DNA of 64,000 nucleotides from Halioglobus sp. (GTDB lineage Bacteria > Pseudomonadota > Gammaproteobacteria > Pseudomonadales > Halieaceae), in contig JAWKZL010000004.1 of NCBI GenBank assembly GCA_041396025.1, positions 113,116 through 177,115 of the forward strand. The letters run 5' to 3'. Each line of letters begins with the position of its first letter. Position 1 is the stretch's first letter. Shown here one piece after another: positions 1,955 to 32,623 of the stretch. Position numbers and translations under genes: made by a program. The notes below the pieces were generated by a model, which was given only the letters and a program-made list of their open reading frames with translations, did not search any database and was not told the origin of the DNA.

Positions 1955-2515
1955 CTAGAACAACAACCCCAGCGTCGGCAACTGTATATTCGCGTAATCC
2001 AACACCACTTCACGGCGAGCTATGCGCCATTCAGGATCATTGGGTACCAGCGTATCGCGGCGCTGGCCGCTGTAGCTCACGTTGTCACAGCCGGGCCGAG
2101 CATAATACAAATGGAAGTTGCTGATTACTGACAGGGAATCGTGGCTACGCGCCATCAATTCGATATTACCGACGATGCGACGCGTGCGCGCCGGCGGGTG
2201 TTCAGACCAGGAATTGATTTTGTATGCGCGCTCTGCTCGAAGCATCAAGTGAATGTAGCTCTCCTCCCGGTGTGGACACCCCATGGAGTCCTCGCCCTCC
2301 AACTCGCGGTCGACGCTGGTCATACTCTCCTGTCCACGCTCACGGTTATCCACCTGTACATTGATTCGCGAAGGCATGATATAGCGTACGTCTTCAGTGA
2401 GCAGTTTCAACCATTGCAGGTATTGCCGTTCGTCCAGCAAGCGCGCCTCAAAGAAATAGAACCGCTCCAGCGCGCGCTGTTCGTCAGCGCTGACTGTCAA
2501 GGACTGCGTACTCAC
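1955..2515 (-). CDS. Aromatic ring-hydroxylating dioxygenase beta subunit
   Basis: FYFFEARLLDERQYLQWLKLL, WSEHPPARTRRIVGN, SGQRRDTL...WRIARREV; 4-bp overlap with the alpha subunit gene. Confidence 0.93.
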   Translation of the reverse strand: MSTQSLTVSADEQRALERFYFFEARLLDERQYLQWLKLLTEDVRYIMPSRINVQVDNRERGQESMTSVDRELEGEDSMGCPHREESYIHLMLRAERAYKINSWSEHPPARTRRIVGNIELMARSHDSLSVISNFHLYYARPGCDNVSYSGQRRDTLVPNDPEWRIARREVVLDYANIQLPTLGLLF

Positions 2516-5284: not shown

Positions 5285-6793
5285 ATGACAGAACACCACA
5301 ACCCTAGTGCCACAGGCTCGATCCAACCCTGGGCTCAAGCTGGTCGCCAACCACGGATTGCCATAATCGGCGCAGGTATGTCCGGCATTGCCGCCGTGGT
5401 GAAATTGCAGAAGGCGGGCTACAGCGACATCACCGTCTATGAAAAGACCGACAAAGTCGGCGGCACCTGGCGCGAGAACACCTACCCCGGCTTGTCCTGC
5501 GATGTTCCATCGCGCTGGTACTCGTTCAGCTTCGCACTTAAAGCCGACTGGCCGCATCGCTACTCTTACGGTGCCGATATACAGGCTTACATGGAATCTG
5601 TCGCGCGTGACTTCGGTGTCAACGAAAAAGTGACATTCAACACCGCCGTAACCGATCTGGTGTACGAGCCGCCTTGCTGGCGCCTGACGACTTCAAGTGG
5701 CGAACAGGCGCTGTTTGATATCGTCATCTCCGCCACTGGCATCCTGCACCAACCGGTCTACCCCGATATTGAAGGACTCGAGAATTTTGCTGGCGCTGCT
5801 TTCCATTCTGCACGCTGGGATCACTCCATTGAGCTGGACGGCAAACGTGTAGGCATCATCGGCACCGGCTCAACAGCGTGCCAGATCGTCGGCGCGATCA
5901 CCGATCGGGTTTCAGAGATGCATGTGTTTCAACGCACGCCTCACTGGATATCACCCTTGCCACAGAAGGCCTACTCCGCCGCGTGGAATAGTTTCCTGGC
6001 CCGCTTTCCCATAATGCAGCGCGTGATCTACAACTACTATTATCAACTGTTAGTGCGCACATTCAGCGCCGCCACTGTCGGCAATAAACTTATGCAACGC
6101 TGGATGGACAGCATCTGTCGTAAACACCTTGAAGATACGGTACCCGACCCCGAGTTACGGGCCAAGCTTACGCCCGACTACCAGGCCACTTGCAAACGGA
6201 TGATTTTCTGCTCCGACTACTACCCGGCGCTGTGTCGCCCACATACACAGCTGGTAACTGCGGGCATTAAAAAGGTGGAACCGGAAGGCGTGCTTACAGC
6301 GGATGGCGTCCTACACAAATTGGACGTGCTGGTGCTAGCGACCGGCTTCAATGCCGCAGCCTTCATTTTGCCAACGCGCGTCACCGGAGAAAACGGCCTG
6401 GACCTGGAACACGTATGGGACGGTGCACCGCGAGCCCATCGCGCGGTCGCCATCCCAGGTTTTCCCAACTTCTGGATGCTGGAAGGCCCGACCGGACCCG
6501 TAGGTAACCTGTCGCTTATTGCAATTTCCGAACACCAGGTGGATTACATTATCAGTATGCTCGAGCGCATGAAGGCTGACGGCCTATCCTCCATCGCAGT
6601 AAAGCAATCTGCCTACGACGCATACAACGGCGCAATGAGTGAGGCGATAAAAACCACGACCTGGGCAACCGGTGGCTGTAAGAGTTGGTACATCGACAAG
6701 ACCGGCGTCCCGAACCTTTATCCATGGTTTCCGGTGCGTTACCTGAAGGAAATGCATAACCCCGTGTACTCCGAGTACCAGTTGAGTAAATAG
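5285..6793 (+). CDS. Baeyer-Villiger-type flavin monooxygenase
   Basis: GAGMSG, GGTWRENTYPGLSCDVPS, FAGAAFHSARWDH fingerprint, GTGSTA, ATGF. Confidence 0.93.
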   Translation: MTEHHNPSATGSIQPWAQAGRQPRIAIIGAGMSGIAAVVKLQKAGYSDITVYEKTDKVGGTWRENTYPGLSCDVPSRWYSFSFALKADWPHRYSYGADIQAYMESVARDFGVNEKVTFNTAVTDLVYEPPCWRLTTSSGEQALFDIVISATGILHQPVYPDIEGLENFAGAAFHSARWDHSIELDGKRVGIIGTGSTACQIVGAITDRVSEMHVFQRTPHWISPLPQKAYSAAWNSFLARFPIMQRVIYNYYYQLLVRTFSAATVGNKLMQRWMDSICRKHLEDTVPDPELRAKLTPDYQATCKRMIFCSDYYPALCRPHTQLVTAGIKKVEPEGVLTADGVLHKLDVLVLATGFNAAAFILPTRVTGENGLDLEHVWDGAPRAHRAVAIPGFPNFWMLEGPTGPVGNLSLIAISEHQVDYIISMLERMKADGLSSIAVKQSAYDAYNGAMSEAIKTTTWATGGCKSWYIDKTGVPNLYPWFPVRYLKEMHNPVYSEYQLSK

Positions 6794-11308: not shown

Positions 11309-12217
11309 GTGAATGGTGTCACAGCGAACCGGTATAATTACTGCGCCAATGTTCCGCTGGCCATCATTTTGACAGGAGAACACCCCTTGAAAGCAGCACC
11401 TCCGCGAGCGCTAACAGCCATGCTCGTTTTTGTTGGCATTGCTGTAGTCGGATACCTGGATTATCTAAGCGGAAACGAAATACGCATTTTTCCTTTGTAC
11501 TATTTGCCGATAATTCTGGCCGCTTGGGTTTTCAGGTGGCCTGGTGCGTTGATCGCCTCGCTGCTTGCGTCATTCGCCTGGCTGATATCGCTACTGGAAA
11601 CGGGAAATGGCTACTCCAACGGTTACATCTGGGTAATAAACACGTTTACCCAAGGGGTAGCCTTTTTGATGGTATCACTGCTAGTGGCAAAGTTACGTGA
11701 GTTCATCGAACGCGAGCAGGTCCTTGGCAGAACAGACCCCCTCACCCAGCTCTACAATACGAGAGCTTTCAACGAGCAGACCAATCTGGTGCTGGGACTG
11801 TGTCATCGATATTCACGGCCGGTGACCCTCGCTTTTATTGACCTTGATAACTTCAAGAATGTAAACGATACCCTTGGCCATGCCCAAGGCGACGCATTGC
11901 TGCGAAAGGTGGCTAGCGTTCTGCAATCCAGCTTTCGTTCCAGCGATATTATCGCGCGCCTTGGAGGCGATGAATTCGCAGTATTGTTTCCCGAGACAGA
12001 AGCCGAACACGCCGGCGCAATGCTGGAAAGGCTGCGACAGCGCTTAATCGAAATACCCGAATTGAAGACTAGTGCAGTAAGTGCAAGCATAGGTGCTATC
12101 GCCTATGTCATTGCGCCGGAACACCCGAACGAGATGCTAAAAAGAGCGGATGCGTTAATGTACTCGGTTAAGAAAGCAGGCAAAAATCGCGTAATGCTGG
12201 ATCAAGTGGCTGGTTGA
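11309..12217 (+). CDS. Membrane-bound diguanylate cyclase (GGDEF)
   Basis: About 4 TM helices; DLDNFKNVNDTLGHAQGD; RSSD I-site; intact GGDEF. The true start may lie downstream (TTG about 11387). Confidence 0.93.
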   Translation: MNGVTANRYNYCANVPLAIILTGEHPLKAAPPRALTAMLVFVGIAVVGYLDYLSGNEIRIFPLYYLPIILAAWVFRWPGALIASLLASFAWLISLLETGNGYSNGYIWVINTFTQGVAFLMVSLLVAKLREFIEREQVLGRTDPLTQLYNTRAFNEQTNLVLGLCHRYSRPVTLAFIDLDNFKNVNDTLGHAQGDALLRKVASVLQSSFRSSDIIARLGGDEFAVLFPETEAEHAGAMLERLRQRLIEIPELKTSAVSASIGAIAYVIAPEHPNEMLKRADALMYSVKKAGKNRVMLDQVAG

Positions 12218-12746: not shown

Positions 12747-13274
12747 TTAGCGATTGCGGCTGAGCTGTGCCGCGAGCTTGTCCTTCATCGGTAATACCCA
12801 CTGTGCCTTCAGTTGAGCTGACAACAAACCGGCATCCTCCAGGTCATCGCAAAGTTTCATCTGGTGAGCGAGATCAAACATATCGAACTGTCGGCAGATT
12901 TTGGCCTGATCATTGAGGGTAAGAAAAGAGACGCCGGGCGATTCAAAAAATGAACCGTCTGCACGCGTCCCGGGGCCGCGGTTCATCCAATGTGTAATCA
13001 AGCTGTTGCCGACTCCGGTGTACACGCCGATATAGGGAAAGGTCCAGCCCTCCCAACCGACTTTCATGTCACGCCCATAGTGTGTTGCCTTGATCTCGTC
13101 GATGCCATTGGCCGTCACATCCATTACACCGGCATACTGACAGGTGTAGATACAATCAGCGGCGTATATTTCGTCTACAAAAAAGATCCAGTCATTGGTT
13201 CTTGATGCTTCCTCATGGGCTGCTATCAGCTTGTCTGCAGTATCGCGTAGCACCAAATCGCTGAGTGTGGCCAT
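12747..13274 (-). CDS. NTF2/SnoaL-like protein (Rv0762c-like)
   Basis: NDW..VDEIYAADCIY...GIDEI...GWEGWTFPY...RQFDMFD. Confidence 0.8.
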   Translation of the reverse strand: MATLSDLVLRDTADKLIAAHEEASRTNDWIFFVDEIYAADCIYTCQYAGVMDVTANGIDEIKATHYGRDMKVGWEGWTFPYIGVYTGVGNSLITHWMNRGPGTRADGSFFESPGVSFLTLNDQAKICRQFDMFDLAHQMKLCDDLEDAGLLSAQLKAQWVLPMKDKLAAQLSRNR

Positions 13275-13318
13275 GCTATCCTCCGAAAATGTGTTGTTAT
13301 CATGGTGCTGAACAAGTA

Positions 13319-14212
13319 CTACAGATATGCCCCCACTACAGCCTCTACTGTGGCGCGCACATTGTTGCGACTGTAGCCCAGTTCGCCATTGTCCGGTTCA
13401 TAGCTGATGAGGGCGTTGCGACCAGCGTAAAGAATGACGTCGGGGAACAGCGGATGCTCCGCCTCAGAAACCGGAAGGTCCATTGGATTTCCAACTGCTG
13501 AGAAGTACATCTCAAGATACGCTTTCCAGCTGAGGTTCTCATCCCCCACCAGATATGCCTTACCACCTTCGCCACGCGCCAATGCGCCGGCAATCGCCTC
13601 GGACATCGAGGTACTGGTGATATGGTTTACACCACCGGCAGGGGCGACCAGAGGCATGCCTTCGAGCCGGCCGGCTGCATACTGCACCAACACTTCCAGA
13701 TGCGGCAGCGACAGGCCCGGCACACTGCCTAGAATAAATGGCGCATTCAGGCTGCACACCGAAAAGCTGGCGCTGTTAAGTGTTCGCACACCTTCGTCAG
13801 CCAGGTGACGGGAACGCACATACGCGTCGGTTTCAATTTTTTCTGGAACCACCTGCGGGTAGTAGGTGCCGATATACACCGCCCGCGCTATACCGGCGTC
13901 TTTCGCCTGTTGAAAGAACCGCGGAACTGCCTCGGTATTGACCCGTGTAAAAAAAGCATCAGCGTCCTCGCCCGGCGGCAACTGGCGAATATCGGCGCCA
14001 GCGGCAAACACCAGCTGATCAAACTCCCGCAAGGCTGCGAGCGATACGTCGCCATCGACATAGTTACCGACCAGATGCGGAAACTCACGCAGACACGCAA
14101 GTGTCGGTGCACAACGCGACATCAGTGTCACGCGATGCCCTGCACCACGCAGATGCATGGCCGCATGCGCCCCGGTAAGCCCCGTGCCACCAACCAACAA
14201 TATATTCGCCAC
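13319..14212 (-). CDS. NAD-dependent epimerase/dehydratase (extended SDR)
   Basis: GGTGLTG Rossmann motif; YVRSR in place of YxxxK. Confidence 0.85.
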   Translation of the reverse strand: MANILLVGGTGLTGAHAAMHLRGAGHRVTLMSRCAPTLACLREFPHLVGNYVDGDVSLAALREFDQLVFAAGADIRQLPPGEDADAFFTRVNTEAVPRFFQQAKDAGIARAVYIGTYYPQVVPEKIETDAYVRSRHLADEGVRTLNSASFSVCSLNAPFILGSVPGLSLPHLEVLVQYAAGRLEGMPLVAPAGGVNHITSTSMSEAIAGALARGEGGKAYLVGDENLSWKAYLEMYFSAVGNPMDLPVSEAEHPLFPDVILYAGRNALISYEPDNGELGYSRNNVRATVEAVVGAYL

Positions 14213-14224
14213 TATAAATTCCTT

Positions 14225-14971
14225 CTAAGGTCGCATGAACTGGCCACCGTCGACATTCAGGATGTGACCAGTAATCCAGCTCGCTTCGTCCGACAGTAAA
14301 AACAGCGCCGCATCCGCCATGTCCTGGGGCGTGCCAAGGCGTTTGATGGGCATGCTCTTGATCATTTCCTTGGCATAATCACCGGCAGTCTTGGCCAGCG
14401 CCCCGGTATCCGTAGGGCCGGGAGCAATTGCATTTACCCTGATCTTGCGCCAGCCCAATTCGTTGGCAATACTTTGTGTAATGCCATTAACGGCAAGCTT
14501 GGCAACACCATAAAAACCGGTACTCATCCACGCAGCGGTGGATGACTGGTTAATAATCGCGCCACCACCGGCGGCTGTCATATGCTCAATTACCGCTCGC
14601 GTCATAATGACGCAACCGTGGGCATTGATACGCATGAATTTTTCCAGATAGTCCATATCGACATTCATGTAACCTTCGATCTTCATATCACCAAAAATTG
14701 CAGCATTATTGATCAGGTAGTTGATCCCGCCAAACTTCTCCACAGTGGCCTGGGCGCAGGCTTTGGCGGAGCTCTCAGAACCGACATCCGTTTTTACATA
14801 CAGTGCACTGCCACCATTCTTGCTGATCGCGTCAGCAACGCGTTGACCACCCTCTTCATTCAGCTCAGCGATCACCACATTCATGCCACGCGCCGCACAG
14901 GCCGTTGCATAGCCCTCGCCAATACCGCCGCCAGCGCCCGTTACAATAATTGTTTTGCCAGTAAAGTCCAT
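14225..14971 (-). CDS. SDR oxidoreductase (Rv0769-like)
   Basis: TGAGGGIG, NNAAIFG, NQSSTAAW, FYGVAK, NAIAPGP, NVDGG. Confidence 0.93.
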   Translation of the reverse strand: MDFTGKTIIVTGAGGGIGEGYATACAARGMNVVIAELNEEGGQRVADAISKNGGSALYVKTDVGSESSAKACAQATVEKFGGINYLINNAAIFGDMKIEGYMNVDMDYLEKFMRINAHGCVIMTRAVIEHMTAAGGGAIINQSSTAAWMSTGFYGVAKLAVNGITQSIANELGWRKIRVNAIAPGPTDTGALAKTAGDYAKEMIKSMPIKRLGTPQDMADAALFLLSDEASWITGHILNVDGGQFMRP

Positions 14972-14984
14972 GCAGAAATCCTCG

Positions 14985-15758
14985 TTAAAATATCGTTTTG
15001 GAAGTGAGTTTATTGGGACGAATCTCCAGCAGATCGACAGCGACTCCCGGGGGCTGCAACAGGGCGTAGCTCACCGCCTCTGCCACGTGACTTGTATCCA
15101 TGCCCATATCCAGATAGCTGCCGGCATCTTTCCAGGCAGTTATTGCCGCATCGAAGGCGTGTTTGTCCCAGCCTTCTGAAAAGCTTGTCCATGCTCCGCC
15201 GGGGCGGATGCAGGTGACCCCGATATTGTCCGGCTGTAGCTCCACGCGCAGGTCGCGAGTAAAGCGCTCTACAGCCGCTTTGGTGGCCGCATAGATTGAG
15301 AGATGGCTGATCTCGTCGTAATGCCAGGCACTGGCTGAGGAGATATTGATGATGCGGGGATTTTCACCGCCGCGCAGCAGCGGAATGGCAGCTTGCGAGC
15401 AGTACACAGTGCCGAGGAAGTTGGTGTGCACTTGCAGGACTACCTCTGCCTCTACCAGCGACTCGATCTTGTTGGGCGTCGCCAGGCCTGCGTTGTTGAC
15501 CAGTCCATCGACGCGTCCGAAGTGATCTCTTATAGTCTCGAACGCAGTGCAAATTGCAGCGCGCGAGCCAACATCTGCAGCCACGCCAAAAGCACGGCCC
15601 GCGCCCAACTCCTCCACCACCTGATCCAGTGCACTCTGCGTCCGACTGATCAAGCCGACGCATGCACCCTGCTCTACCAGGTTTTTAGCAATCGCTAACC
15701 CGAATCCTTTGGAGGCGCCAGTGACGATATAGACCTTGTTCTCCATCAGAGAACTCAT
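14985..15758 (-). CDS. SDR oxidoreductase
   Basis: TGASKGFG, NNAG, NISS, YAATK. Confidence 0.93.
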   Translation of the reverse strand: MSSLMENKVYIVTGASKGFGLAIAKNLVEQGACVGLISRTQSALDQVVEELGAGRAFGVAADVGSRAAICTAFETIRDHFGRVDGLVNNAGLATPNKIESLVEAEVVLQVHTNFLGTVYCSQAAIPLLRGGENPRIINISSASAWHYDEISHLSIYAATKAAVERFTRDLRVELQPDNIGVTCIRPGGAWTSFSEGWDKHAFDAAITAWKDAGSYLDMGMDTSHVAEAVSYALLQPPGVAVDLLEIRPNKLTSKTIF

Positions 15759-17218
15759 ACGCCGATGGCAATCGTCTTGGTTTCCAGATACTCCTCGAAA
15801 CCCTCACGACCCATTTCGCGGCCAACGCCACTTTGCTTATAACCGCCAAAGGGCGCATCGGCACCGTAGAAGTTGCCGCCGTTGACATTCACTGTGCCCA
15901 CCCGCAGGCGGCGGGCCACAGCCAATGCACGCGACTCATCGGCCGACCAGACGCCACCTGAAAGGCCGTAGTCCGAGTCGTTCGCGATGCGCACAGCGTC
16001 ATCTTCGTCGTCGTAGGCAATAACCGCCAGTACGGGCCCAAAAATTTCTTCCCGGGCTATAGTCATGTCGTTGGTAACATCCATGAACACGGTCGGCTCA
16101 ACGTAATAGCCCTTCTCCAGATGTGCCGGCACTCCGCCACCAAGCAACAGGCGCGCGCCCTGTGCCTTACCTTTTTCAATATACGCCAACACCCTCTCGC
16201 GTTGACGGGCATTAATGAGTGTACCCATGATCTGGCTGTCGGAGCCAGGATCACCATACTGGATAAAGCCAAAGTAGGTCGGTAACAACGCCTCCACTTC
16301 CGCCTGTCTGGACCGCGGTATCAACAGGCGGGTGTGAATCGCACAGCCCTGTCCGGCGTGGAAGCAGACGGCGAGACAGCTGAGCAGACTGGAACCGAGG
16401 TCCGCGTCGTCGAGAATAATATTGGCGGACTTGCCGCCCAGTTCGAGAAACACTTTTTTCACAGTCTGCGACGCACGCGCCATGATGTGTTTGCCCACAG
16501 CGGTCGAGCCTGTAAACGAGACCATGTCGACACGCGGGTCGCCAACCAGCTGATCACCCACTTCTTTCGGGTCTTCAGCAGTGATGACGTTGAAAACCCC
16601 GGCGGGTATATCCGTGTATTCCTTCACCACGCGCCCGAGCATAGTCGCGGACCACGGAGTATCCGGCGCCGCTTTAAGCACCACAGTGCAGCCAGCAGCA
16701 AGTGCGGGGACGCATTTGGCAAGATTGATCTGCAGTGGCACATTCCAGGGCGTGATACAGGCCACAACACCAATGGCTTCCTTCTCGACCAGACGTCTGC
16801 TCTTACCGCCCATCATTTCGGATATCCCGATATCGCGACTCCATTCATAGGTCGGCAAGCTACTGAGCGTGTAATCCATAAAACCGATAGGTATTTCACA
16901 CTGCGGACCCATCGCGCCGCATATACCCAGCGGGGCACCCGTCTCTGCGGCGATCTGCTGTTTGAATTCCTCGACAACCGACTTTAGCCCATGTTGCAGC
17001 TGTTGCAGACATTTGTGCCGGAATGCATGGTCAGTGGACCAGTCGCTACTATCGAACGCATGACGGGCTGCTGCGATTGCCCTGTCCATATCCTCGGTAC
17101 CGGCATCGGCGACCCGCCCCATCACTTCTTCAGTCACCGGGTTGATATTTGCATAGGTCTTACCTGAGGCGGCATCGCAGAGTTCGCCATTGATAAACAG
17201 TCTGGTTTCCGGATTCAC
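15755..17218 (-). CDS. Aldehyde dehydrogenase (Rv0768/AldA-like subfamily)
   Basis: ITPWN, FTGST, LELGGKS, HAGQGC catalytic Cys, EEIFGP, PFGGYKQSG. Confidence 0.95.
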   Translation of the reverse strand: MNPETRLFINGELCDAASGKTYANINPVTEEVMGRVADAGTEDMDRAIAAARHAFDSSDWSTDHAFRHKCLQQLQHGLKSVVEEFKQQIAAETGAPLGICGAMGPQCEIPIGFMDYTLSSLPTYEWSRDIGISEMMGGKSRRLVEKEAIGVVACITPWNVPLQINLAKCVPALAAGCTVVLKAAPDTPWSATMLGRVVKEYTDIPAGVFNVITAEDPKEVGDQLVGDPRVDMVSFTGSTAVGKHIMARASQTVKKVFLELGGKSANIILDDADLGSSLLSCLAVCFHAGQGCAIHTRLLIPRSRQAEVEALLPTYFGFIQYGDPGSDSQIMGTLINARQRERVLAYIEKGKAQGARLLLGGGVPAHLEKGYYVEPTVFMDVTNDMTIAREEIFGPVLAVIAYDDEDDAVRIANDSDYGLSGGVWSADESRALAVARRLRVGTVNVNGGNFYGADAPFGGYKQSGVGREMGREGFEEYLETKTIAIGV

Positions 17219-17232
17219 TTGATTTACTCCTG

Positions 17233-18108
17233 CTACATCGGGGGTCGGGATTCATCTTTGGCCAGGAACACGTTCACAATCCTGTCGCGAATAAATTCAG
17301 CAGTGGGCAACACTACATCCTTTTCGGCGGCCGTGGTAATGGCACACTCCAGGTCTTTATGGGCCAGCCTGCCCATAGCGCCAAAATACGGATCCATGTC
17401 TGCCTCGGTACTGGTTTTAGCCACGGCATTGCGGCCGCTTGCAAACATGAACATCTGTTCGTTGACGACACCATTCGAAAGGCCCACCGCGCGCAACACA
17501 TCAGGCGAGAGCCCACAGGCTTCAGCCAGACGAGTGGCCTCCACCATCGCCACAAACTCCGCGTACTGGATGAAGTTATTACACAGTTTGAGTGCGATAC
17601 CAGAGCCAATCGGGCCGGCATGCACGATCTTTTCCGCAGAGGTGAGAAATACGGGAGAGGCGGATTCGAGCTGAGCGTCAGTGCCCCCAACCATGTAGCA
17701 TAACGTCCCCTCCGCTGCGCGGTGGGCACCACCAGTAATGGGTGCATCAATCAGGTCGAAACCCAGGTCGGAAGCCTGCTGTGCCCAGCGCAGCAGGTTG
17801 GCTTGCGTGACCGTGCTATGAATTGCAATTAGCGTACCCGGTTTGGCGTTTGCGAAAATACCGTCATCGCCATGGAGCAGGTCTTCTACCTGCGTATCAT
17901 CACGCACACAGACACCAATATGCATGCACTTACCGGCGAGTTCGGCAACAGTCGCACAGGCTAACGCACCGGCGCCCACTAAGTCCTCGACAGCAGGAGT
18001 GAAGACGTCGTAGACATGCGCGTTGTATGCGTCAACGATCAGGCGCTTCGCAGAGGGTTTGCCGATATTGCCGAGCCCTATATAGCCGACATTGATTTTC
18101 GCACTCAT
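17233..18108 (-). CDS. Beta-hydroxyacid dehydrogenase (3-hydroxyisobutyrate DH family, Rv0770-like)
   Basis: GYIGLGNIG, DAPITGG, GSGIALKLCNN. Confidence 0.92.
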   Translation of the reverse strand: MSAKINVGYIGLGNIGKPSAKRLIVDAYNAHVYDVFTPAVEDLVGAGALACATVAELAGKCMHIGVCVRDDTQVEDLLHGDDGIFANAKPGTLIAIHSTVTQANLLRWAQQASDLGFDLIDAPITGGAHRAAEGTLCYMVGGTDAQLESASPVFLTSAEKIVHAGPIGSGIALKLCNNFIQYAEFVAMVEATRLAEACGLSPDVLRAVGLSNGVVNEQMFMFASGRNAVAKTSTEADMDPYFGAMGRLAHKDLECAITTAAEKDVVLPTAEFIRDRIVNVFLAKDESRPPM

Positions 18109-18164
18109 GCACTGCTCCCTTTTTAGCGTTCTCAGTTGTAGCGGGGTACGGTCCAGAGCGCAGC

Positions 18165-18229
18165 AGTGTAGCTATTCCAAAACTGCACTGTCAATACAAA
18201 TTGACTAGTCGTCAATCTCTGTTTACTAT
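18165..18229. promoter_or_regulatory. Back-to-back sigma70 promoters overlapped by a tandem palindromic operator
   Basis: Plus: TTGACT(18201)-N17-TACTAT(18224). Minus: TTGACA(18194-18189)-N18-TACACT. Perfect GTCAAT-N4-ATTGAC (18190-18205) and imperfect GTCAAT-N4-GTTTAC (18211-18226). Confidence 0.75.
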
Positions 18230-18236
18230 CTACGCC

Positions 18237-19295
18237 ATGAACCAAATCATAGCCAAACCGGCAGAATCTGAAAGTATCCGCAAAAGATACCGCGACAACT
18301 CGTGCCGACACCTGCTGGGCACGGCTCACTACCTGCAAACCCGTGTGATGAACACACTTAAAACGCAGTGCGGACACAAGCACCTGCGCCTTGGCTTCAC
18401 ACCGTATATCTCGTTGATAGGAGAACGCGGTCGACGCTTGACTGATATTGCAGAGGTCCTCGGTATCTCCCGGCAAGCCTGCAACCAGGCCGTCAAGCCA
18501 ATTGAAAGCGCAGGCTACATTGCGCGCAAAGCAGACCAAACCGACGGCCGGGCAAAAACGCTCTACCTGACGCCCGCTGGTGTAAAACTGCGCAGTGATG
18601 GTACGCGGATTGTAACCGAACTCGACCGCGAATTTGCCGCTATTGTCGGTAATGATGCGATCGCCGACACCAGCAAAACGCTGGGAAAGATTTATCACCA
18701 CCTGGCGCTGGGACCGGCGCAGGAGCGCGTCCCTCGTCCTCCCGAGGTCGGTATGGGTGCATTATTGCCTGCGCTGGCGGACTATATCCTGCATCGCTTG
18801 ATGGAATTGACTCGCGACAAGGGTCATCGGAGACTGCAGTTGCGCTTCGGTCAGGTGCTGACCCTGATCGGGCCTTCCGGTGGACGCATTCAACAGATCG
18901 CGACCATCCACGATGTGAGCAAGCAAGCGATCAGCGTCATCGCGACAGAGTTAGAGGAACAAGGCTACCTCCAACGCAACCCGGACCCTACTGACGCGCG
19001 GCAGATTGTGCTCAACTTTACTCCTCGGGGAAACCAACTCATTGCAGATTCAGTCCTCAGCGTCGAGGAACTGGAACACGAATTCGCCGCGATCGTCGGA
19101 CAGGCAGCGCTCAAGCGCATGAACATTACCCTGCGACAGCTCTATCTTGGCCTGCAGTTGGAGCCGGATGTATTTGAAAAACACAATTCGTCAGATATCG
19201 GGCACCTGGCGCACCAACTACAGCAAGAATTGGGACCTCAGGGCAGTCGGGCCTTGGCCAGACTACTGCTGACCCCTTCCGTTAATACGAGGTAA
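18237..19295 (+). CDS. Tandem (double) MarR-family transcriptional regulator
   Basis: Two wHTH repeats, ISRQACNQAV...DQTDGRAK and VSKQAISVIA...DPTDARQI. ATG 18237 is preferred over TTG 18201, which coincides with the -35 box. Confidence 0.88.
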   Translation: MNQIIAKPAESESIRKRYRDNSCRHLLGTAHYLQTRVMNTLKTQCGHKHLRLGFTPYISLIGERGRRLTDIAEVLGISRQACNQAVKPIESAGYIARKADQTDGRAKTLYLTPAGVKLRSDGTRIVTELDREFAAIVGNDAIADTSKTLGKIYHHLALGPAQERVPRPPEVGMGALLPALADYILHRLMELTRDKGHRRLQLRFGQVLTLIGPSGGRIQQIATIHDVSKQAISVIATELEEQGYLQRNPDPTDARQIVLNFTPRGNQLIADSVLSVEELEHEFAAIVGQAALKRMNITLRQLYLGLQLEPDVFEKHNSSDIGHLAHQLQQELGPQGSRALARLLLTPSVNTR

Positions 19296-19301
19296 TAGAA
19301 A

Positions 19302-20030
19302 ATGAACAACGAGTGGCTGTCTTATGTGTGGCAACACTACAACATACTTGGTGCGGTACTGGCGCTTGCTGCAATTATCGGTATCACCGTGGTCGGCAAG
19401 CGGCTGTTGTTTAGCGTGCCCGCTCTGGGAGAAATGCGCGCCCTCAACAAGGAGAAGGACAAGCCGAAGTGGCAAACGGAAAAATACCCACCGGTTGTGC
19501 GTGCTACCCAGAAGGTCGGCATGTACTGCAATCTGGTATTTTTCTTCCTGCTGCTGCCATTTTGCATCACATTGAACGCGCAACCGGTGTGGAAAGTACT
19601 GTTGGATATTTTCATTATCCTGATGTTTTATGACTTTTTGTATTACCTGTCACACCGCTTCTGGTTTCACGGACAGGGTGCCATGCGTAAAGTACACGCC
19701 GTACATCACCAGGCGCGTAATCCAACCTATCTCGATGCGCACTATGTACATCCGCTGGAAACGTTTATCGGACTCGGGCTGTTTATTGGCTCAATAGTAT
19801 TTTTGGCAGCGATCATGGGCCCATTTCAGATTGTCACCATTGTTTTGACGTACCTGATCTTTACGCATATCAACCAGATTAATCACATTTACCTGGACCT
19901 GCCCTATTTCCCTTACAAGACGGTGAACTGGATTGTAGCGAAACATCACGTTCATCACGAAAACATGCACAAGGGTAACTACGCGACGATCACGCTGTTC
20001 TACGACAAAATTTTCGGCACACTCGACTGA
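19302..20030 (+). CDS. Sterol desaturase / fatty acid hydroxylase superfamily membrane di-iron enzyme
   Basis: His boxes HRFWFH, HAVHH, H..Q.NH and HHVHH; multiple TM helices. Confidence 0.92.
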   Translation: MNNEWLSYVWQHYNILGAVLALAAIIGITVVGKRLLFSVPALGEMRALNKEKDKPKWQTEKYPPVVRATQKVGMYCNLVFFFLLLPFCITLNAQPVWKVLLDIFIILMFYDFLYYLSHRFWFHGQGAMRKVHAVHHQARNPTYLDAHYVHPLETFIGLGLFIGSIVFLAAIMGPFQIVTIVLTYLIFTHINQINHIYLDLPYFPYKTVNWIVAKHHVHHENMHKGNYATITLFYDKIFGTLD

Positions 20031-20047
20031 TTAACGGGAGATAAAAA

Positions 20048-20434
20048 ATGAATGACGAGGAACGCCGCGCCCTGGGCGAGGCAACTATTAAAGATGTATA
20101 CGCCGGTGACGTTGTAGTGCCACCTGAGGGCTATGCCTTCAGCGATATTATGCTGAAGCAGTTATTCGCCGAATTATGGACACGTGAAACCTTGTCAATG
20201 CGCGACAAACGCATTTTGCTGCTTGGTATCATTGCAGAAAAAGGAGAGCCAACCACGTTCAAAATTCAGATCAAGGCATCGTTAAAGCGAGGAGAAATCA
20301 ACCCGGAGGAAGCTCGCGAACTACTGCTATTCATCGCCCAATACGCAGGCTATCCTCGCGCGGCTTCAATGCTGGGACCCCTGGAGCAAGCCATTGGCGA
20401 ATATGAGAAGGAAACGGCTGCCAGCCAAAGCTGA
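20048..20434 (+). CDS. Carboxymuconolactone decarboxylase family protein (Rv0771-like)
   Basis: LFAELWTRETLSMRDKR...EARELLLFIAQYAGYPRA; no AhpD CxxC. Confidence 0.88.
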   Translation: MNDEERRALGEATIKDVYAGDVVVPPEGYAFSDIMLKQLFAELWTRETLSMRDKRILLLGIIAEKGEPTTFKIQIKASLKRGEINPEEARELLLFIAQYAGYPRAASMLGPLEQAIGEYEKETAASQS

Positions 20435-20450
20435 CAGCCTATCTGCACCA

Positions 20451-23204
20451 TCACTTTCCAAGCTTCGCCAACAACGCTTTCGCCTCAGCCAACTCTGGAA
20501 AGTCCGGATTGGTAGCAAGCAGCTTTTCCAGTATGGCGCGCGCTGCTGACTTGTCGTCAAGAGCGGCGGCAATCATTGCACTGTGGTAAATCAAGGAAGG
20601 GTTTTCCGGTGATTTTTCCAGCGCACGCTCAATAGTGCGTTGCGCACGTGGGTAATCCTTGTTCAGGTATTCTATCACCGCCATCGTGTCCAGCACCTCA
20701 GCTGCATCCGGTGCAGCGGCAGCGGCCTGGCGCGCATACTCCAGCGCCTGTGCAGGGTCTTTTTCCCTCTCTAGCCATGCGATATTGTTGAGCGCGGTGA
20801 CATTTCTAGGTTCATCCTGCAAGATTTTTTTGTACTGGGTGACGGCTTCGTTCTCCTGCGCAGTCGCCAGCAGGTCATTGGCATAAGCCAAACGAGCAAC
20901 AACGTCATTTGGATTTTTCTCCAGCCAGGTAACATAGCGTTGCTGTGCACTCTTGTGTTCGCCTCCCGCCATCTCGTAATTAGCGAGCGACACGAGGGTA
21001 CCTGTAGATGGCGATAGCGAATACGCTTTTTCGGCGAGCTTTATTGCCTCACCCTGGTCACCTTTGCGTTGCGCTGCGGCGGCTTGTAACAACACGACAT
21101 CCGAGTTCTCCGGTGCCAGCTCGATCAGTTTTTTCAGCTGTGTCTCAAATTGTTCATTGTCGTTACTGGTAAGCGCAATTCTGGCCAGCGCGATTCTCGA
21201 AATAATATAGTTTTCATCCAGCGCAATCGCCCGATTCAACTCTTCGATCACTCGCGCCTGATCGCCATTACCTGCTGCCGCCATAGCCATTGCATGGCGG
21301 ATAGGAGCACTGTCGGGTGTGGATTTCAGTAGTTGCTCCAGCGTGTATTGCGCGGCACTGGAATCACGGGTCGACAGCTGTGCCATTGCGATAAGCGGGA
21401 GAACTTCCGGTGATTGCTGCTGCTTCATATCCAGATCAGTGAACAGCGGCGCAACCTGTTCGGGCTTGCCCTCGGACAGGTAGTATCGCGCCAGTAGTAA
21501 ACGCGGGTGCAGTGCAGTTGGATCAACTTTGCGCGCCTGTTCCAGATGGGCGACCATAGCCACTTTATCCGACTCCCGTGCATCCAGCAAAGCGAGTTGG
21601 ATCAGTGTTGGAGTGGAATCAGGGTGTCCTGCTAATGCAGTTTCGTAGCGCTTGCGGGCGGCTGCGACATCATTGCCTGCAAGCGCTATCTGTGCGAGAT
21701 AATGGTTCGCCGCCGGATCTGCTTTATCCAGTACCAGCGTTTCCTCAAATGCTGTCGCTGCTTTGTCATTATCGCCAGCATCCATGTAAACCTTGCCCAG
21801 CAGGTTATGTGCTGTCACCTCTTTCGGATGACGGCCTCTATAGGCCTCGGCGGCAGCAATTGCCGCTGCAGTGTCACCGTTCTGCAGGTGGTTGAATACC
21901 AGAAGGATATCGGCCAACTGGAATTGCGGGTCAAGCTCCAGTGCGGTTTCCATATGATGCACTGCGTCGTCATTCTTTCCCTCTATCAGCAGTCCGGCAC
22001 CGAGCCTGATCTGCGCACCGGCGGAGTCTGGTTGCAACTTCGCGACGTGTGCCAGCATCGCTATCGCTTCATCCATGCGTCCGGTTTTGAGTAAGGCATT
22101 GCTCATGAGATTGAGTGCATCCACATCATCAGGCAAGTTCTCCAGGACCGGTTGCAGCAGCGACAGCACAGCGCTGTAATTACCCTGTTGCAAGCGGATG
22201 GTCGCCAGCAATTTGCGTCCCTGCACGCTGCCTGGCGCCAAAGCGTAAAAACGCTCGGCCTGACTGGAGGCCATATCCGAGTTACCTTGCTTCAGATTGG
22301 CGCTGGCCAGAAAAAACAAGGCAAGCGGATATTGCTCGAATACCGGCTCTGCCAGGGACAGTGAGGCAATCGCGTCGGGATATCTGCCAGCCTGGAAATG
22401 CAACAGACCTTGTACGTAGTTTGCCTGTGGGCTGTTTTTTGACGCGACCAGCAGAGTCCTGGCATCGCGTTGCGCCGCTTGGTAATCAGCCAACTGCAGG
22501 TTTATCAATGCACGTTTGAACAGGTCATTCAAATTATTCTTACCCAGTTCTACCGCTTTACTGTATGCGCTCAGCGCACCATCAAAATCTTTCTGATATT
22601 GCAAAAGATCTCCGCGCAGGCTCCACGCCTGTGCATTGGATGCGTCGAGCTTTAGCAGTTCGTCGAGCGTTGCGCTGGCGCCCTCAACATCGCTGGTCGA
22701 GGCCTGCAGGCGCGCCTTGGCCAGCATCGCCTGGGTAGAATCCGGCGTAGCCACTAATGCCCTGTCTATCAACTCCTGCGCATTCCAGTTGTCGCCCTGC
22801 GCCAACGCCGCCTGGGACTGCATTGCGAGCACGGTGGCAAGGCCGGCTGTATTCAGGCCAGCGAGGCTCATATCCTGAACCTGTTGGTACTCCCCTTGCG
22901 CCAGCAGCGCTTCCGCCAACGCCGGCTTGATATCTTCCGCAGCACCACCGAGTTCTAACGCGCGCTGCAGCTCCTTGCGAGCTGACGGCATATCGCCCAT
23001 CGCCAGATACGACTTACCCAATAACCAACGCGCCTGTGAAGAGTCCGGTTGCAAGCGCAGTGCATTTTTCAGATCGATTGTCGCCGCGGCATAGTCAGAC
23101 TTTGAAATCGAAGTCTGTGCGCGCGCAAGGTAGTCCTCGACAGTGTCACTGCTGCAGGACACCACGAGCAGAAGAAGAAGGGATAAAAGTACCTGTTGCT
23201 TCAT
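20451..23204 (-). CDS. prsT: XrtA/PEP-CTERM system TPR lipoprotein PrsT
   Basis: Lipobox VVSC, IDLKNAL...ARWLLGK, about 900 aa of TPRs, LNNIAW...VLDT C-terminus; adjacent to a PEP-CTERM gene. Confidence 0.88.
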   Translation of the reverse strand: MKQQVLLSLLLLLVVSCSSDTVEDYLARAQTSISKSDYAAATIDLKNALRLQPDSSQARWLLGKSYLAMGDMPSARKELQRALELGGAAEDIKPALAEALLAQGEYQQVQDMSLAGLNTAGLATVLAMQSQAALAQGDNWNAQELIDRALVATPDSTQAMLAKARLQASTSDVEGASATLDELLKLDASNAQAWSLRGDLLQYQKDFDGALSAYSKAVELGKNNLNDLFKRALINLQLADYQAAQRDARTLLVASKNSPQANYVQGLLHFQAGRYPDAIASLSLAEPVFEQYPLALFFLASANLKQGNSDMASSQAERFYALAPGSVQGRKLLATIRLQQGNYSAVLSLLQPVLENLPDDVDALNLMSNALLKTGRMDEAIAMLAHVAKLQPDSAGAQIRLGAGLLIEGKNDDAVHHMETALELDPQFQLADILLVFNHLQNGDTAAAIAAAEAYRGRHPKEVTAHNLLGKVYMDAGDNDKAATAFEETLVLDKADPAANHYLAQIALAGNDVAAARKRYETALAGHPDSTPTLIQLALLDARESDKVAMVAHLEQARKVDPTALHPRLLLARYYLSEGKPEQVAPLFTDLDMKQQQSPEVLPLIAMAQLSTRDSSAAQYTLEQLLKSTPDSAPIRHAMAMAAAGNGDQARVIEELNRAIALDENYIISRIALARIALTSNDNEQFETQLKKLIELAPENSDVVLLQAAAAQRKGDQGEAIKLAEKAYSLSPSTGTLVSLANYEMAGGEHKSAQQRYVTWLEKNPNDVVARLAYANDLLATAQENEAVTQYKKILQDEPRNVTALNNIAWLEREKDPAQALEYARQAAAAAPDAAEVLDTMAVIEYLNKDYPRAQRTIERALEKSPENPSLIYHSAMIAAALDDKSAARAILEKLLATNPDFPELAEAKALLAKLGK

Positions 23205-23406
23205 AGACAGCACCCGCTGAAAAGCTTGGATTACCTCCAGGCAGACCACCACCCTGAAGCGTTTATTGAGGATAAACATACCACATTGGCCAGGGAAGGG
23301 AACTTGATGCGCGGTATTGAAGCAGTCATCAAATCGATTGCTCATTTTTACGGCGAAACCCTACTGATTAATCTATCAACAGGGCTATCGCAGTATCGGT
23401 ACCAAC

Positions 23407-23434
23407 AAAAAAGGCGACCGCGAGGGTCGCCTTT
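23407..23434 (-). terminator. Intrinsic terminator after the PEP-CTERM gene
   Basis: AAAAAA-GGCGACC-gcgag-GGTCGCC-TTT. Confidence 0.85.
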
Positions 23435-23453
23435 CGCACAGCTGCGTTAGAGA

Positions 23454-24332
23454 TCAGGCGTTGCGACGGCGACGCATGCCACCCAGCCCGGCCAGACCAA
23501 GACCTATCAGTGCAAGAATACCAGGCTCCGGCACATCATTCGGATCGGGATCTGGATCTGGATCTGGATCAATCACTACACGCTCGGTAGTTATGAGAGC
23601 GCCAAATTCAAACGTAGTCGTGGCTTTCTCTGGAGTAATAAATCCAAGGCACGGCTCGTTGCTGCCGGTGGCTGCCAGACAGGCGGCCGGAGACAGAGCG
23701 TTAAGGCCCGAAGTTGCTTCTACAAAACTCAGGAAGTATTCCTGTTCAGGATCACCACCAGCGCCATCCGTGTCATAGAAGAACGAGAAGTTCAGTGCGT
23801 CGCTACCGATTACGAAAATATCGCCGCAACCATTCGAATTCACGCCAGAATTGTTCGCACCCCCATTGGCACAAGGGTTATCGTTGTTTGGTGTTTCCAG
23901 AAAATCGATCAGGAACGTGGTCGAGGTCGCAGGCAATGCACCGAGTGGCGGAGTCAACGGTGTCAGTGTCAGTGCGATGGCTAATGAAACCTTATCCAGC
24001 GTGGCACCATTGATCGGATTGTTGGTATGCGTTAAAGAGACATTCGGCACGGGCGGCAGCGTTGTGCCAATGCCTGTGTTCACGACGGTGTCGATCGGTG
24101 AATTGGTGATATCCAGCCCGCTTTGGCCACCGGTACCCCAGCGCAGCCTCCGATCGCTGTTGCTGATGGTTACGCCGCCCGGGGCATTACCGTTTGAGTC
24201 AACGATGGTATCCGGCAGGAAGACTGCATCCACACCAACCGTCCACTGCGTGATAATTGCTGCATTTGCTCCACTGGCGGCCAAAGCCGTCAGGGCAAAC
24301 GCCACTGTCTTAATCTGCTTTCTGAAGTTCAT
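23454..24332 (-). CDS. THxN-family PEP-CTERM surface protein
   Basis: Signal peptide, SLTHTNNPI motif, FLETPN, (DP)n linker, VPEPGILALIGLGLAGLGGMRRRRNA; SD AGGAGA before ATG 24332. Confidence 0.92.
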   Translation of the reverse strand: MNFRKQIKTVAFALTALAASGANAAIITQWTVGVDAVFLPDTIVDSNGNAPGGVTISNSDRRLRWGTGGQSGLDITNSPIDTVVNTGIGTTLPPVPNVSLTHTNNPINGATLDKVSLAIALTLTPLTPPLGALPATSTTFLIDFLETPNNDNPCANGGANNSGVNSNGCGDIFVIGSDALNFSFFYDTDGAGGDPEQEYFLSFVEATSGLNALSPAACLAATGSNEPCLGFITPEKATTTFEFGALITTERVVIDPDPDPDPDPNDVPEPGILALIGLGLAGLGGMRRRRNA

Positions 24333-24416
24333 ACTCTGTCTCCTGATTCTTATTGCGGGTAGATCCCTTACGACCACCGAAAACATTGTGTCAATCAATG
24401 TTCCTTAACCAGTACA

Positions 24417-26090: not shown

Positions 26091-27698
26091 TTAGCGCTGC
26101 ACCTTAAATCCGGAGGCACGAGCATCCCACGTGGAAGGTGTGACACCCCGCTCGCGCAACAAGAATTTCTGCACTTTATTGGTCGGGGTATAGGGTAGCG
26201 AATCGACAAACTGTATGTAGCGCGGTACGAAAAAATACGGCGCATTGTCGTTGATGAACCGGGCAAGTTCGACAGCTGTCAACGACTGTCCCGGTTTGAG
26301 AATCACATCCAGCATGATCTCCTGCTCCGACTCCAGCTCTGCGCTTTGCACCCCAAATGCGGCGCAATCGGCAATTGCCGGGTGCCTGCGGGCCGCCAGT
26401 TCAACTTCGAATGTAGAGATATTACGGCCCTTGTAACGCACGGCGTCTTTCTTCCGGTCGGAGAAAAAATAGTAGCCCTCAGCGTTGCGTTTCAACATGT
26501 CACCTGTTTTGTACCAGGGCCCGTCAAATGCCGCTGCAGTAGCCTCCGGATTATCGAAATAGCCATTGAATATAAAATGCGGCCACAGCGGTTTAACCCA
26601 GAGCTCGCCCGCCTCACCGTCGGCAACATCCTGTCCGTCGTCTGCCACCAGCCGCGCTTCAAGACCCGGCACCAGACTGCCGCAACTGCCCGGCGGTTGT
26701 GTGCGCCCGGCAACCGGCGCAACCAGACGCATCGCCTCACTCTGGCCCAGACCCTGCGGCACAAGCGTAAGATTGAAGCGCTGGCAAAAAGGTTCTACTA
26801 CCGCAGGTGGCATAGGAATGGCCATCAGCTTGCGCAAACTGTGAGACGCATCATCGTCCCGCTCTGGTGCGTCCCACAGAAACATGTGCATGGCTCCGAG
26901 CGTAAAACACTGTGTAGCTTTATAGTGATCCACGCGCTGCCAGAACGTGGATACCGAAAAGCTCGGATCAATGGCCAGCGGTACCCCGGCAAACAACGCG
27001 CGAAAAATCGCAGTCACCCAGACAGCAGAGTTGTACATCGGCAACACAGTAAAGATGACATCATCTTCTGCGATGCCGTACTGGTGCGGCTCATTGACTG
27101 CCAGTGCAGCGTTGAACCAGACATTGTGGCTCTGCATCACCCCTTTGGATTTGCCGGTAGTACCTGAGGTCCACAACACCGCACACGTGTCGCCGGTACT
27201 CAGCGCTGACATATCCGGCTCCCCGGCCCCCGACACATAGAGTGAGCTGAGGCTGCGCGATCCGGCAAGGGACTCATGACCGCCGTGCATGACCACTGTG
27301 ACATCACTCAACGAGGGCTGAATCTCCTGCAATCTCTCCAGATGAGCTGCGTCGCTAACCAGTATCGTTGGTCTGCTGCCGTTAATCGTATCGAGCAACC
27401 AGGCGCCCTTGTAATCCGTATTCACCGGCACCCATACTGCGCCGAGTTTATTGGTCGCCAACACCAGGAAAATCACCTCGGGCGAGCTTCCCATGTAAAA
27501 CGCCAGACGGTCCCCTGCTTTCAAGCCTGCACTGGCCAGACCCGCAGCCAATTCGTTCACGCGCTGGTTGACCTCGGCGAAGGTATATACCTCATCGCCA
27601 AACAATATAAAGGGATGTTGGCCGTGCTGCTCAGCCTGAACCTGTATTGCCCGTCCCAGATGTCGTTCGCTGGGGTTTTCCAGGTGCAGAATATTCAT
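26091..27698 (-). CDS. Acyl-CoA ligase (CaiC/FadD17-like AMP-binding)
   Basis: WTSGTTGKSKG, GLGQSE, YKTGD, GRNISTFEVE, TPTNKVQK. Confidence 0.92.
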   Translation of the reverse strand: MNILHLENPSERHLGRAIQVQAEQHGQHPFILFGDEVYTFAEVNQRVNELAAGLASAGLKAGDRLAFYMGSSPEVIFLVLATNKLGAVWVPVNTDYKGAWLLDTINGSRPTILVSDAAHLERLQEIQPSLSDVTVVMHGGHESLAGSRSLSSLYVSGAGEPDMSALSTGDTCAVLWTSGTTGKSKGVMQSHNVWFNAALAVNEPHQYGIAEDDVIFTVLPMYNSAVWVTAIFRALFAGVPLAIDPSFSVSTFWQRVDHYKATQCFTLGAMHMFLWDAPERDDDASHSLRKLMAIPMPPAVVEPFCQRFNLTLVPQGLGQSEAMRLVAPVAGRTQPPGSCGSLVPGLEARLVADDGQDVADGEAGELWVKPLWPHFIFNGYFDNPEATAAAFDGPWYKTGDMLKRNAEGYYFFSDRKKDAVRYKGRNISTFEVELAARRHPAIADCAAFGVQSAELESEQEIMLDVILKPGQSLTAVELARFINDNAPYFFVPRYIQFVDSLPYTPTNKVQKFLLRERGVTPSTWDARASGFKVQR

Positions 27699-32565: not shown

Positions 32566-32575
32566 GCGCGGATCG

Positions 32576-32610
32576 AAAAAAAGGGGCCAGCTACCTTGCG
32601 GTGCTGCCCC
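32576..32610. terminator. Terminator hairpin between the convergent CYP153 and SDR genes
   Basis: A7 followed by GGGGC-CAGC...GCTG-CCCC. Confidence 0.6.
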
Positions 32611-32623
32611 AAGCAAACGGCGA

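Follow-up and report, generated by a model that had tools for sequence, protein, structure and literature searches.

A divergent operon pair of Halioglobus sp. carries the dehydrogenase half of the mycobacterial cyp51/cyp123 cluster beside a predicted membrane di-iron hydroxylase

The window analysed here is a stretch of 64 kb from Halioglobus sp. (Halieaceae) with G+C content of about 55%. Nine genes between positions 12747 and 20434 of the window are arranged in two divergent arms. Six genes on the minus strand span 12747-18108, with gaps of -4 to 44 bp according to the list of open reading frames (ORFs), and three genes on the plus strand span 18201/18237-20434, with gaps of 6 and 17 bp. 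The arms are separated by an intergenic stretch of 92-128 bp. The ORFs lie exactly where the original prediction, made from the sequence alone, had placed nine tightly spaced genes, and Pfam and NCBIfam agree with its assignment of an aldehyde dehydrogenase (ALDH), two short-chain dehydrogenases/reductases (SDRs), an extended SDR, a hydroxyacid dehydrogenase, a double MarR protein, and a CMD-family protein. As judged from sequence comparisons, the source genome appears to carry here the dehydrogenase half of the Mycobacterium tuberculosis cyp51/cyp123 cluster, coupled to a di-iron hydroxylase and not to CYP123.

The gene cluster of Dietzia (Mycobacteriales), the PDB entry of Rv0764c, and NCBIfam models served as mycobacterial proxies for M. 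tuberculosis. One arm of the Dietzia cluster codes for an NTF2 protein, a P450, an SDR, a second P450, and a TetR regulator, and the divergent arm for aldA, an SDR, a dehydrogenase, and a CMD protein. The first of its P450s matches M. tuberculosis Rv0764c/CYP51 with 715 bits, and aldA (824 bits, TIGR04284) and the SDR (417 bits, NF005853) are both above the cut-off; the Dietzia loci are therefore the cyp51/cyp123 cluster. When the Dietzia aldA and Rv0769-, Rv0770-, and Rv0771-like proteins were searched against the whole source genome, the window genes were the best matches, with 54%, 59%, 39%, and 32% identity, respectively. Genome-wide reverse searches in Dietzia covered three of the five proteins, and the Rv0770-type dehydrogenase and the CMD protein were reciprocal best matches. 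The kinship with Rv0768-Rv0771 put forward in the original prediction is thus borne out for four genes through the Dietzia proxy, with reciprocity confirmed for the two weakest.

The NAD-dependent ALDH of the Rv0768 (aldA) clade is coded at 15755-17218 (minus strand). It scores 685 bits against TIGR04284 (aldehy_Rv0768), under the cut-off of 775, with the next family at 407 bits, is 54-56% identical to Dietzia aldA, and has the catalytic Glu259 and Cys292. In a quick tree, the ALDHs of this clade were monophyletic against outgroup ALDHs, with the window ALDH inside the clade, and they subdivided into actinobacterial, alphaproteobacterial, and gammaproteobacterial groups. The classical SDR of the Rv0769 type (14225-14971, minus strand) scores 337 bits against NF005853, above the cut-off of 303, and contains the TGxxxGxG and YxxxK motifs. 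A second classical SDR (SDR2; 14985-15758, minus strand; Pfam adh_short, 164 bits) belongs to the proteobacterial core: almost all loci of gamma- and alphaproteobacteria have it after the ALDH, with 43-80% identity. SDR2 is not an orthologue of Rv0765c. The beta-hydroxyacid dehydrogenase-like protein of the Rv0770 type (17233-18108, minus strand; Pfam NAD_binding_2 and NAD_binding_11) has 39-40% identity to the Dietzia gene product and falls under the cut-off of every named NCBIfam equivalog. Catalytic residues are intact in the ALDH, both classical SDRs, and this dehydrogenase.

The CMD-family protein of the Rv0771 type (20048-20434, plus strand) matched the broad Pfam domain PF02627 only, with 25 bits at a cut-off of 23. 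Its gene is the sole and reciprocal best match of the Dietzia CMD gene, and the gene order differs from the mycobacterial cluster, as the window CMD gene is on the opposite strand to aldA. Against the PcaC equivalog TIGR02425 it scored 39 bits and did not reach the cut-off of 156. An AhpD-type peroxidase was rejected as its identity, because the protein is cysteine-free and so has no CxxC. The remaining dehydrogenase-like gene, an atypical extended SDR (13319-14212, minus strand), is an accessory gene present in a subset of loci only. Its product matched Pfam Epimerase with 30 bits and weakly NAD_binding_10, and contains GxxGxxG; no 3Beta_HSD match was obtained in the Pfam search. The catalytic motif is YVRSR, with Lys changed to Arg, and YxxxR is kept in 13 orthologues. 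This protein had been placed in the class that includes Erg26, but with YxxxR conserved instead of YxxxK and the 3Beta_HSD match absent, the analogy to Erg26 fails.

The candidate initiating oxygenase is a 242-aa membrane di-iron hydroxylase/desaturase coded at 19302-20030 (plus strand). It matched PF04116 (FA_hydroxylase) with 75 bits and contains three His boxes (HxxxxH, HxxHH, and HxxHH); across 32 homologues, eight His are invariant. The His-box di-iron enzyme proposed earlier is confirmed as a feature at superfamily level only. The AlphaFold (AF2) model is all-helical, with pLDDT of 95. No NCBIfam family and no PDB sequence match were found for the protein, the sole Foldseek match of the model was a weak one to Scs7p, and in the ESM Atlas the protein falls with generic 'sterol desaturase family' clusters only; the names of cluster members were generic as well. 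Its clade is narrow: 27 representative clusters were found at E<=1e-30, and 400 gammaproteobacterial genomes sampled across the class yielded three weak matches. Relatives with 80-92% identity to the hydroxylase and the ALDH were found in Halieaceae only. For the nearest hydroxylase clade outside it (224 aa, Myxococcota-type), a metagenome scan revealed loci with no CYP51, ALDH, or Bsr nearby.

The last gene of the leftward arm (12747-13274, minus strand) codes for a 175-aa protein without Pfam or PDB sequence match. Its AlphaFold model, computed with 14 homologues in the alignment, has pLDDT of 92.5 and an NTF2/SnoaL fold, and Foldseek found 404 PDB matches at E<=0.001, with hundreds of NTF2/SnoaL structures matched. 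The NTF2 assignment of the original prediction thus stands for the fold, through the AlphaFold model and Foldseek only, and is without support in Pfam. Its equivalence with Rv0762c does not stand: the best match of the Dietzia Rv0762c-like query in the source genome is C2:38375-38848, on another contig and beside CYP51 (32% identity), and the window gene matches with 26%, as a paralogue. A bacterial 8,14-sterol reductase (8,14-Bsr), which acts on the CYP51 product, was demonstrated experimentally by Lee, Giner and Welander (2026, PMC13277303), who found a M. tuberculosis homologue active and listed homologues in gammaproteobacteria. That the active homologue is Rv0762c rests on fold and position, the locus tag not being printed in that paper. 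The window protein was aligned with the CYP51-adjacent Bsr orthologues of Dietzia, two other gammaproteobacteria, and the source genome, and it aligns with them over the full length at 23-30% identity. The motifs YxxDxxY, WxFPY, and DxFD align, and the equivalents of the pocket residues Y37, Y43, Y80, D133, and D136 are kept; the numbering was carried over by position rather than by aligning the M. capsulatus protein directly. In the published mutagenesis, Tyr and Asp of the pocket proved important, and a change of Y78 to Phe was tolerated (PMC13277303); the equivalent of Y78 is Phe throughout the clade of the 175-aa protein. Because the pocket residues are kept and Y78F is tolerated, the protein is predicted to be a diverged Bsr paralogue with intact pocket. 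The gene was present in roughly 26 of 58 Halieaceae-type loci. It is neither an orthologue of Bsr nor co-located with CYP51 and ferredoxin in the window, the true orthologue being on the other contig. Relatives of both proteins occur in a single-contig gammaproteobacterium of 1.7 Mb, which has two tandem hydroxylase relatives with 36-39% identity (G205:C1:1312846-1314094) and, with 57% identity to the 175-aa protein, a homologue of the latter (G205:C1:131362-131766), with the dehydrogenase module near neither.

Related loci were collected in an ALDH-anchored scan of one genome per species, which gave 80 loci. According to ALDH identity to the window gene, 58 loci are at >=70% (Halieaceae and close kin) and 17 at 50-70%, and the hydroxylase was scored as present when located within 8 kb of the ALDH. 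Among the former, synteny of the hydroxylase with the core was confirmed in 51/58 loci and a CYP123-like gene was present in none; at least four of the seven hydroxylase-negative loci are contigs that end before the expected position. Among the latter, a CYP123-like P450 was present in 14/17 loci, eight of these with CYP51 as well, and the hydroxylase in 1/17. The CYP123-like gene is carried by actinobacterial and most alphaproteobacterial loci. One alphaproteobacterial chromosome has two paralogous modules with dehydrogenases 84-85% identical. The first is arranged as AraC / CMD-dehydrogenase-ALDH-SDR2-P450-SnoaL-Plug/OmpA protein, and the best match of its P450 is Dietzia cyp123, with 38% identity and 266 bits; the second has a hydroxylase of the window subfamily in the place of the P450, and the nearest relative of this enzyme in the source genome is the window hydroxylase. 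A quick tree of the ALDHs demands at least two changes of oxygenase. The proteins of about 950 aa at the ends of alphaproteobacterial modules (L066:14421-17318 and L067:14003-16840) combine a Plug domain (TonB receptor) with a C-terminal OmpA domain, which is an unusual architecture. Some taxon labels in the survey conflict with the content: a 'Microbacter' (Bacteroidota) contig is Dietzia-like, with CYP51 94% identical, and contigs labelled 'Bacteroidia', 'Klebsiella', and 'Paracoccaceae' bear the Halieaceae cluster with ALDH 78-82% identical. These conflicts in contigs of metagenome-assembled genomes (L078, L045, L053, and L057) are probably binning errors.

Genes for cyp123, cyp51, ferredoxin, and the TetR regulator HpoR were not found within the window locus, and the best CYP123 match of the source genome has about 32% identity. 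The lack of cyp51 reported earlier is correct for the locus but not for the genome, as two CYP51 genes are on contig C2. A string of Bsr orthologue, CYP51, and extended SDR of the 3beta-HSD family is located at C2:38390-41493 (L089:12391-15494), and the second CYP51, followed by TetR, at C2:50442-52420 (L090:4443-6421). The two CYP51 paralogues are 50% identical, and the first scores 439 bits to Methylococcus CYP51. Upstream of the Bsr-CYP51 string are a GDSL lipase, two further P450s, and a PQQ-like propeller. Lamb et al. (PMC7947880) had already listed CYP51 in Halieaceae. In Sediminihaliea albiluteola, the MarR-hydroxylase-CMD arm is separated from the dehydrogenase arm by a CYP51-ferredoxin pair and TetR, and the dehydrogenase arm terminates in a TonB-dependent receptor; between the arms there are also genes for a PNPOx-like flavoprotein and a luciferase-like monooxygenase (L046:4960-5445 and L046:8019-8879). 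A Halioglobus contig has the gene order ALDH-SDR2-SDR-Bsr-CYP51, and in three Haliea loci CYP51 is 8-10 kb distant.

Hydroxylase and CYP51 are not mutually exclusive, since both occur in L046, L056, and the source genome. As CYP51 is found alongside the hydroxylase in Halieaceae, the exchange appears to concern the CYP123-like P450: the hydroxylase would substitute for this enzyme and not for CYP51, and CYP51-Bsr is a separate unit, frequently linked to the module. The interchangeable oxygenase of the original prediction is thus upheld by the locus survey, the paralogous loci, and the tree, with the CYP123-like P450 in the place of CYP51 as the partner exchanged. The survey shows that the Rv0768-type ALDH, the SDRs, the Rv0770-type dehydrogenase, and the Rv0771-type CMD protein make up an independent cross-phylum module, which always adjoins an oxygenase and repeatedly also the CYP51-Bsr sterol 14-demethylase pair.

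The rightward arm begins with a tandem two-domain MarR regulator (18237-19295, plus strand, with alternative start at 18201), recognized by two MarR/MarR_2 stretches. The region upstream (18109-18236) is a predicted divergent promoter/operator. It contains a perfect palindrome GTCAAT-N4-ATTGAC at 18190-18205 and a half-degenerate copy at 18211-26, overlapped by predicted back-to-back sigma-70-like promoters. Because the palindrome sits between promoter-like sites, the ATG at 18237 is more likely to be the start of MarR than position 18201. Tandem MarR is kept at the same position in Halieaceae loci, with 41-70% identity; the regulator is TetR HpoR in actinobacteria and AraC in alphaproteobacteria.

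To the right of the cluster, a P450 gene (24686-25954, minus strand) and an acyl-CoA ligase gene with AMP-binding domains (26091-27698, minus strand) are neighbours that recur in other loci, and whether they belong to the cluster is uncertain. With 325 bits to a CYP125 ancestor and 240 bits to the steroid C26-monooxygenase CYP125, the P450 confirms the CYP125-like neighbour reported before. Among the most closely related loci, about 13 have the pair next to the cluster. In the window, the PrsT gene (XrtA/PEP-CTERM TPR lipoprotein, 638 bits) and a PEP-CTERM gene at 20451-24398 are between the cluster and the pair; this segment looks inserted, because several close relatives (L009, L012, and L015) have the pair immediately next to the cluster. 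On the other side, roughly 530 bp separate the leftward operon from a GGDEF diguanylate cyclase gene (11309-12217, plus strand). The GGDEF gene was considered as a parallel to the control of HpoR by c-di-GMP, which was rejected, as no related locus has that neighbour.

No squalene/oxidosqualene cyclase was found in the source genome at 87.6% completeness. The genome has 22 P450 matches, seven FA_hydroxylase paralogues, and four Rieske oxygenases with KshA_C domain, which score 109-223 bits (C3:565356, C1:54796, C1:549277, and C1:86729). The presence of KshA-type oxygenases and P450s without a cyclase fits sterol uptake rather than synthesis. P450 and FA_hydroxylase genes are near some of the KshA-type genes, and the regions of the latter are probably one or more steroid-catabolic islands.

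Taken as a whole, the locus is best read, with about even chances, as a MarR-controlled divergent operon pair that oxidises an imported sterol or steroid-type lipid. The membrane di-iron hydroxylase, replacing the CYP123-like P450, would start the pathway by hydroxylating the lipid within the membrane, and the SDRs and ALDH would convert the new alcohol to aldehyde and acid. Oxidation and decarboxylation of a beta-hydroxy acid, with net loss of one carbon, may then fall to the beta-hydroxyacid dehydrogenase-like enzyme together with the CMD protein, and the Bsr paralogue may reduce or isomerise a double bond of the ring system. Tandem MarR would repress both operons at the shared palindromic operator until ligand binding. 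The chemistry from methyl to acid to decarboxylation is inferred. An imported sterol or steroid is favoured because of the Bsr paralogue, the linkage to CYP51, the KshA and P450 content of the genome, the CYP125-like neighbour, and the steroid activity of CYP123, whose enzymes from M. abscessus hydroxylate steroids in vitro (PMC12799577). The Bsr paralogue strengthens the sterol link of the original prediction, as do the pairs of CYP51 with ferredoxin or Bsr inside Halieaceae clusters, and TonB-dependent receptors at the cluster ends in L046, L066, and L067 were counted for an imported lipid. A narrower version is unlikely as it stands, namely that the Halieaceae set of hydroxylase, SDRs, ALDH, Rv0770-type dehydrogenase, CMD protein, and second Bsr-type enzyme removes or oxidises a methyl of imported algal sterols, such as 4-methyl or 4,4,14-trimethyl sterols, by a route not described before. 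If true, such a route would also show what Rv0768-Rv0771 and CYP123 do in mycobacteria.

Several points weigh against an imported sterol as the substrate. The hydroxylase clade has no named relative, the SPFH and RelA/SpoT genes beside the nearest outside clade are an uninformative context, and no electron donor for the hydroxylase is encoded within the locus. The extended SDR is not Erg26-like, and decarboxylase activity of the CMD protein, so far under the PcaC cut-off, is a guess. M. tuberculosis was compared solely through Dietzia and NCBIfam models. An alphaproteobacterium (56% identity) and the 1.7-Mb gammaproteobacterium have homologues of the 175-aa protein with no module genes nearby. 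The in vitro reactions of CYP123 hit secondary ring carbons, for which an ALDH is needless (PMC12799577), and H2O2 resistance is the one phenotype known for the cluster in mycobacteria (PMC5909442).

Some of the same evidence suits an upper catabolic route by the logic of XylMA-B-C, AlkB-J-H, or CymA-B-C, with a hydrophobic substrate that is no steroid, for example a terpenoid (acyclic or monocyclic), an alkyl chain, or an alkyl-aromatic. The enzyme set fits the order of hydroxylase, alcohol dehydrogenase, and aldehyde dehydrogenase, the hydroxylase clade is without a demonstrated sterol relative, and NTF2 proteins include limonene epoxide hydrolases. The proximity of CYP51 would then merely reflect a catabolic genome rich in P450s, FA_hydroxylase paralogues, and also a Rieske dioxygenase and a Baeyer-Villiger monooxygenase (BVMO). 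This pathway is nevertheless rather unlikely, as physical linkage of CYP51 or Bsr with the module recurs across three phyla or classes, the 175-aa protein retains the Bsr pocket, and the CYP123 family has steroid activity (PMC12799577).

The mycobacterial phenotype suggests another role, redox or oxidative-stress defence like that of the hpoR operon, with detoxification of peroxidation-derived aldehydes or other reactive species. The homologous Ms5855-5865 genes are induced by c-di-GMP and H2O2 and raise H2O2 resistance (PMC5909442), and Rv0762c-Rv0771 reacts as a unit to aldehyde stress (PMC10470581). An ALDH and a CMD protein, which is of the AhpD superfamily, suit such a role, and a GGDEF gene adjoins the cluster. 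However, the CMD protein lacks the cysteines, the regulator is MarR and not HpoR, the GGDEF neighbour is not conserved, and the TonB receptors and the CYP51-Bsr linkage suggest an imported lipid. Stress defence is considered improbable. Cleavage of ether lipids by an alkylglycerol monooxygenase-like hydroxylase, with the fatty aldehyde passed to the ALDH and a glycerol-type product to the beta-hydroxyacid dehydrogenase, would account for an aldehyde as direct product and for the best scores of the dehydrogenase, which are to tartronate-semialdehyde reductase models (150 bits), and alkylglycerol monooxygenase is a member of the FA_hydroxylase superfamily; but no sequence evidence links the 242-aa hydroxylase to that subfamily, the Bsr paralogue and the CYP51/CYP123 association are left unexplained, and this reading is very improbable.

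In the literature, the mycobacterial cluster goes by the name of hpoR operon (Li et al. 2018, PMC5909442). In calling its collective function unresolved, the original prediction overlooked the work on hpoR (PMC5909442), on steroid hydroxylation by CYP123 (PMC12799577), and on Bsr (PMC13277303). The window locus shares with the hpoR cluster (Rv0762c-Rv0771 / Ms5855-5865) the Rv0768-clade ALDH, the Rv0769-type SDR of the same NCBIfam equivalog, the Rv0770-type dehydrogenase, the Rv0771-type CMD protein, an NTF2 protein of the Rv0762c family, and the divergent layout around a repressor-bound intergenic region, the operator being predicted here. It differs in having no cyp123, cyp51, ferredoxin, or Rv0765c, in MarR instead of TetR HpoR, and in an NTF2 protein that is a paralogue and not an orthologue of Rv0762c; it adds the FA_hydroxylase, a second SDR, and the atypical extended SDR, and its host is a marine gammaproteobacterium. 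The 175-aa protein resembles 8,14-Bsr in the NTF2 fold, the full-length alignment, and the Tyr and Asp residues of the pocket, but has low identity and Phe at Y78, and its gene is not beside CYP51 or ferredoxin. The CYP123-like gene beside the ALDH module of actinobacteria and alphaproteobacteria has the position of the window hydroxylase, whereas CYP123 is a soluble haem P450 of a family unrelated to the membrane di-iron enzyme; CYP123A9 of Rhodococcus sp. P14 is cited as a steroid hydroxylase in PMC12799577. ERG25/SMO-ERG26-ERG27 and bacterial SdmAB follow the same proposed logic, methyl oxidation and then decarboxylation of a beta-keto acid, and ERG25 shares the His-box superfamily with the window hydroxylase. 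In contrast to the window, where separate SDRs and an ALDH are coded, ERG25 and SdmA do all three oxidations alone, and the window extended SDR has no Erg26 features.

No literature was found on a hydroxylase-bearing Halieaceae module or on alternation of CYP123 and hydroxylase, and a genomics paper on Halieaceae (PMC10100682) makes no mention of sterols, steroids, or P450s. The window locus is the Halieaceae version of a known cluster, and its hydroxylase-bearing form is new. In mycobacteria, the retention of CYP51 in bacteria making no sterols and the roles of CYP123 and Rv0768-Rv0771 are long-standing questions; the cluster influences stress resistance, and CYP123 influences infection by M. 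abscessus. The module with CYP51-Bsr in harmless, cultured marine bacteria such as Halioglobus japonicus and Sediminihaliea albiluteola offers tractable systems for finding the substrate, and the CYP123-like and His-box hydroxylase versions a clear comparative design. The findings also suggest that bacteria turn over algal sterols in coastal seawater. Other oxygenases are also coded in the window, at 1955-3798, 5285-6793, and 31306-33514: Rieske alpha and beta subunits with TetR, a flavin monooxygenase of Baeyer-Villiger type, and a P450 beside an SDR.

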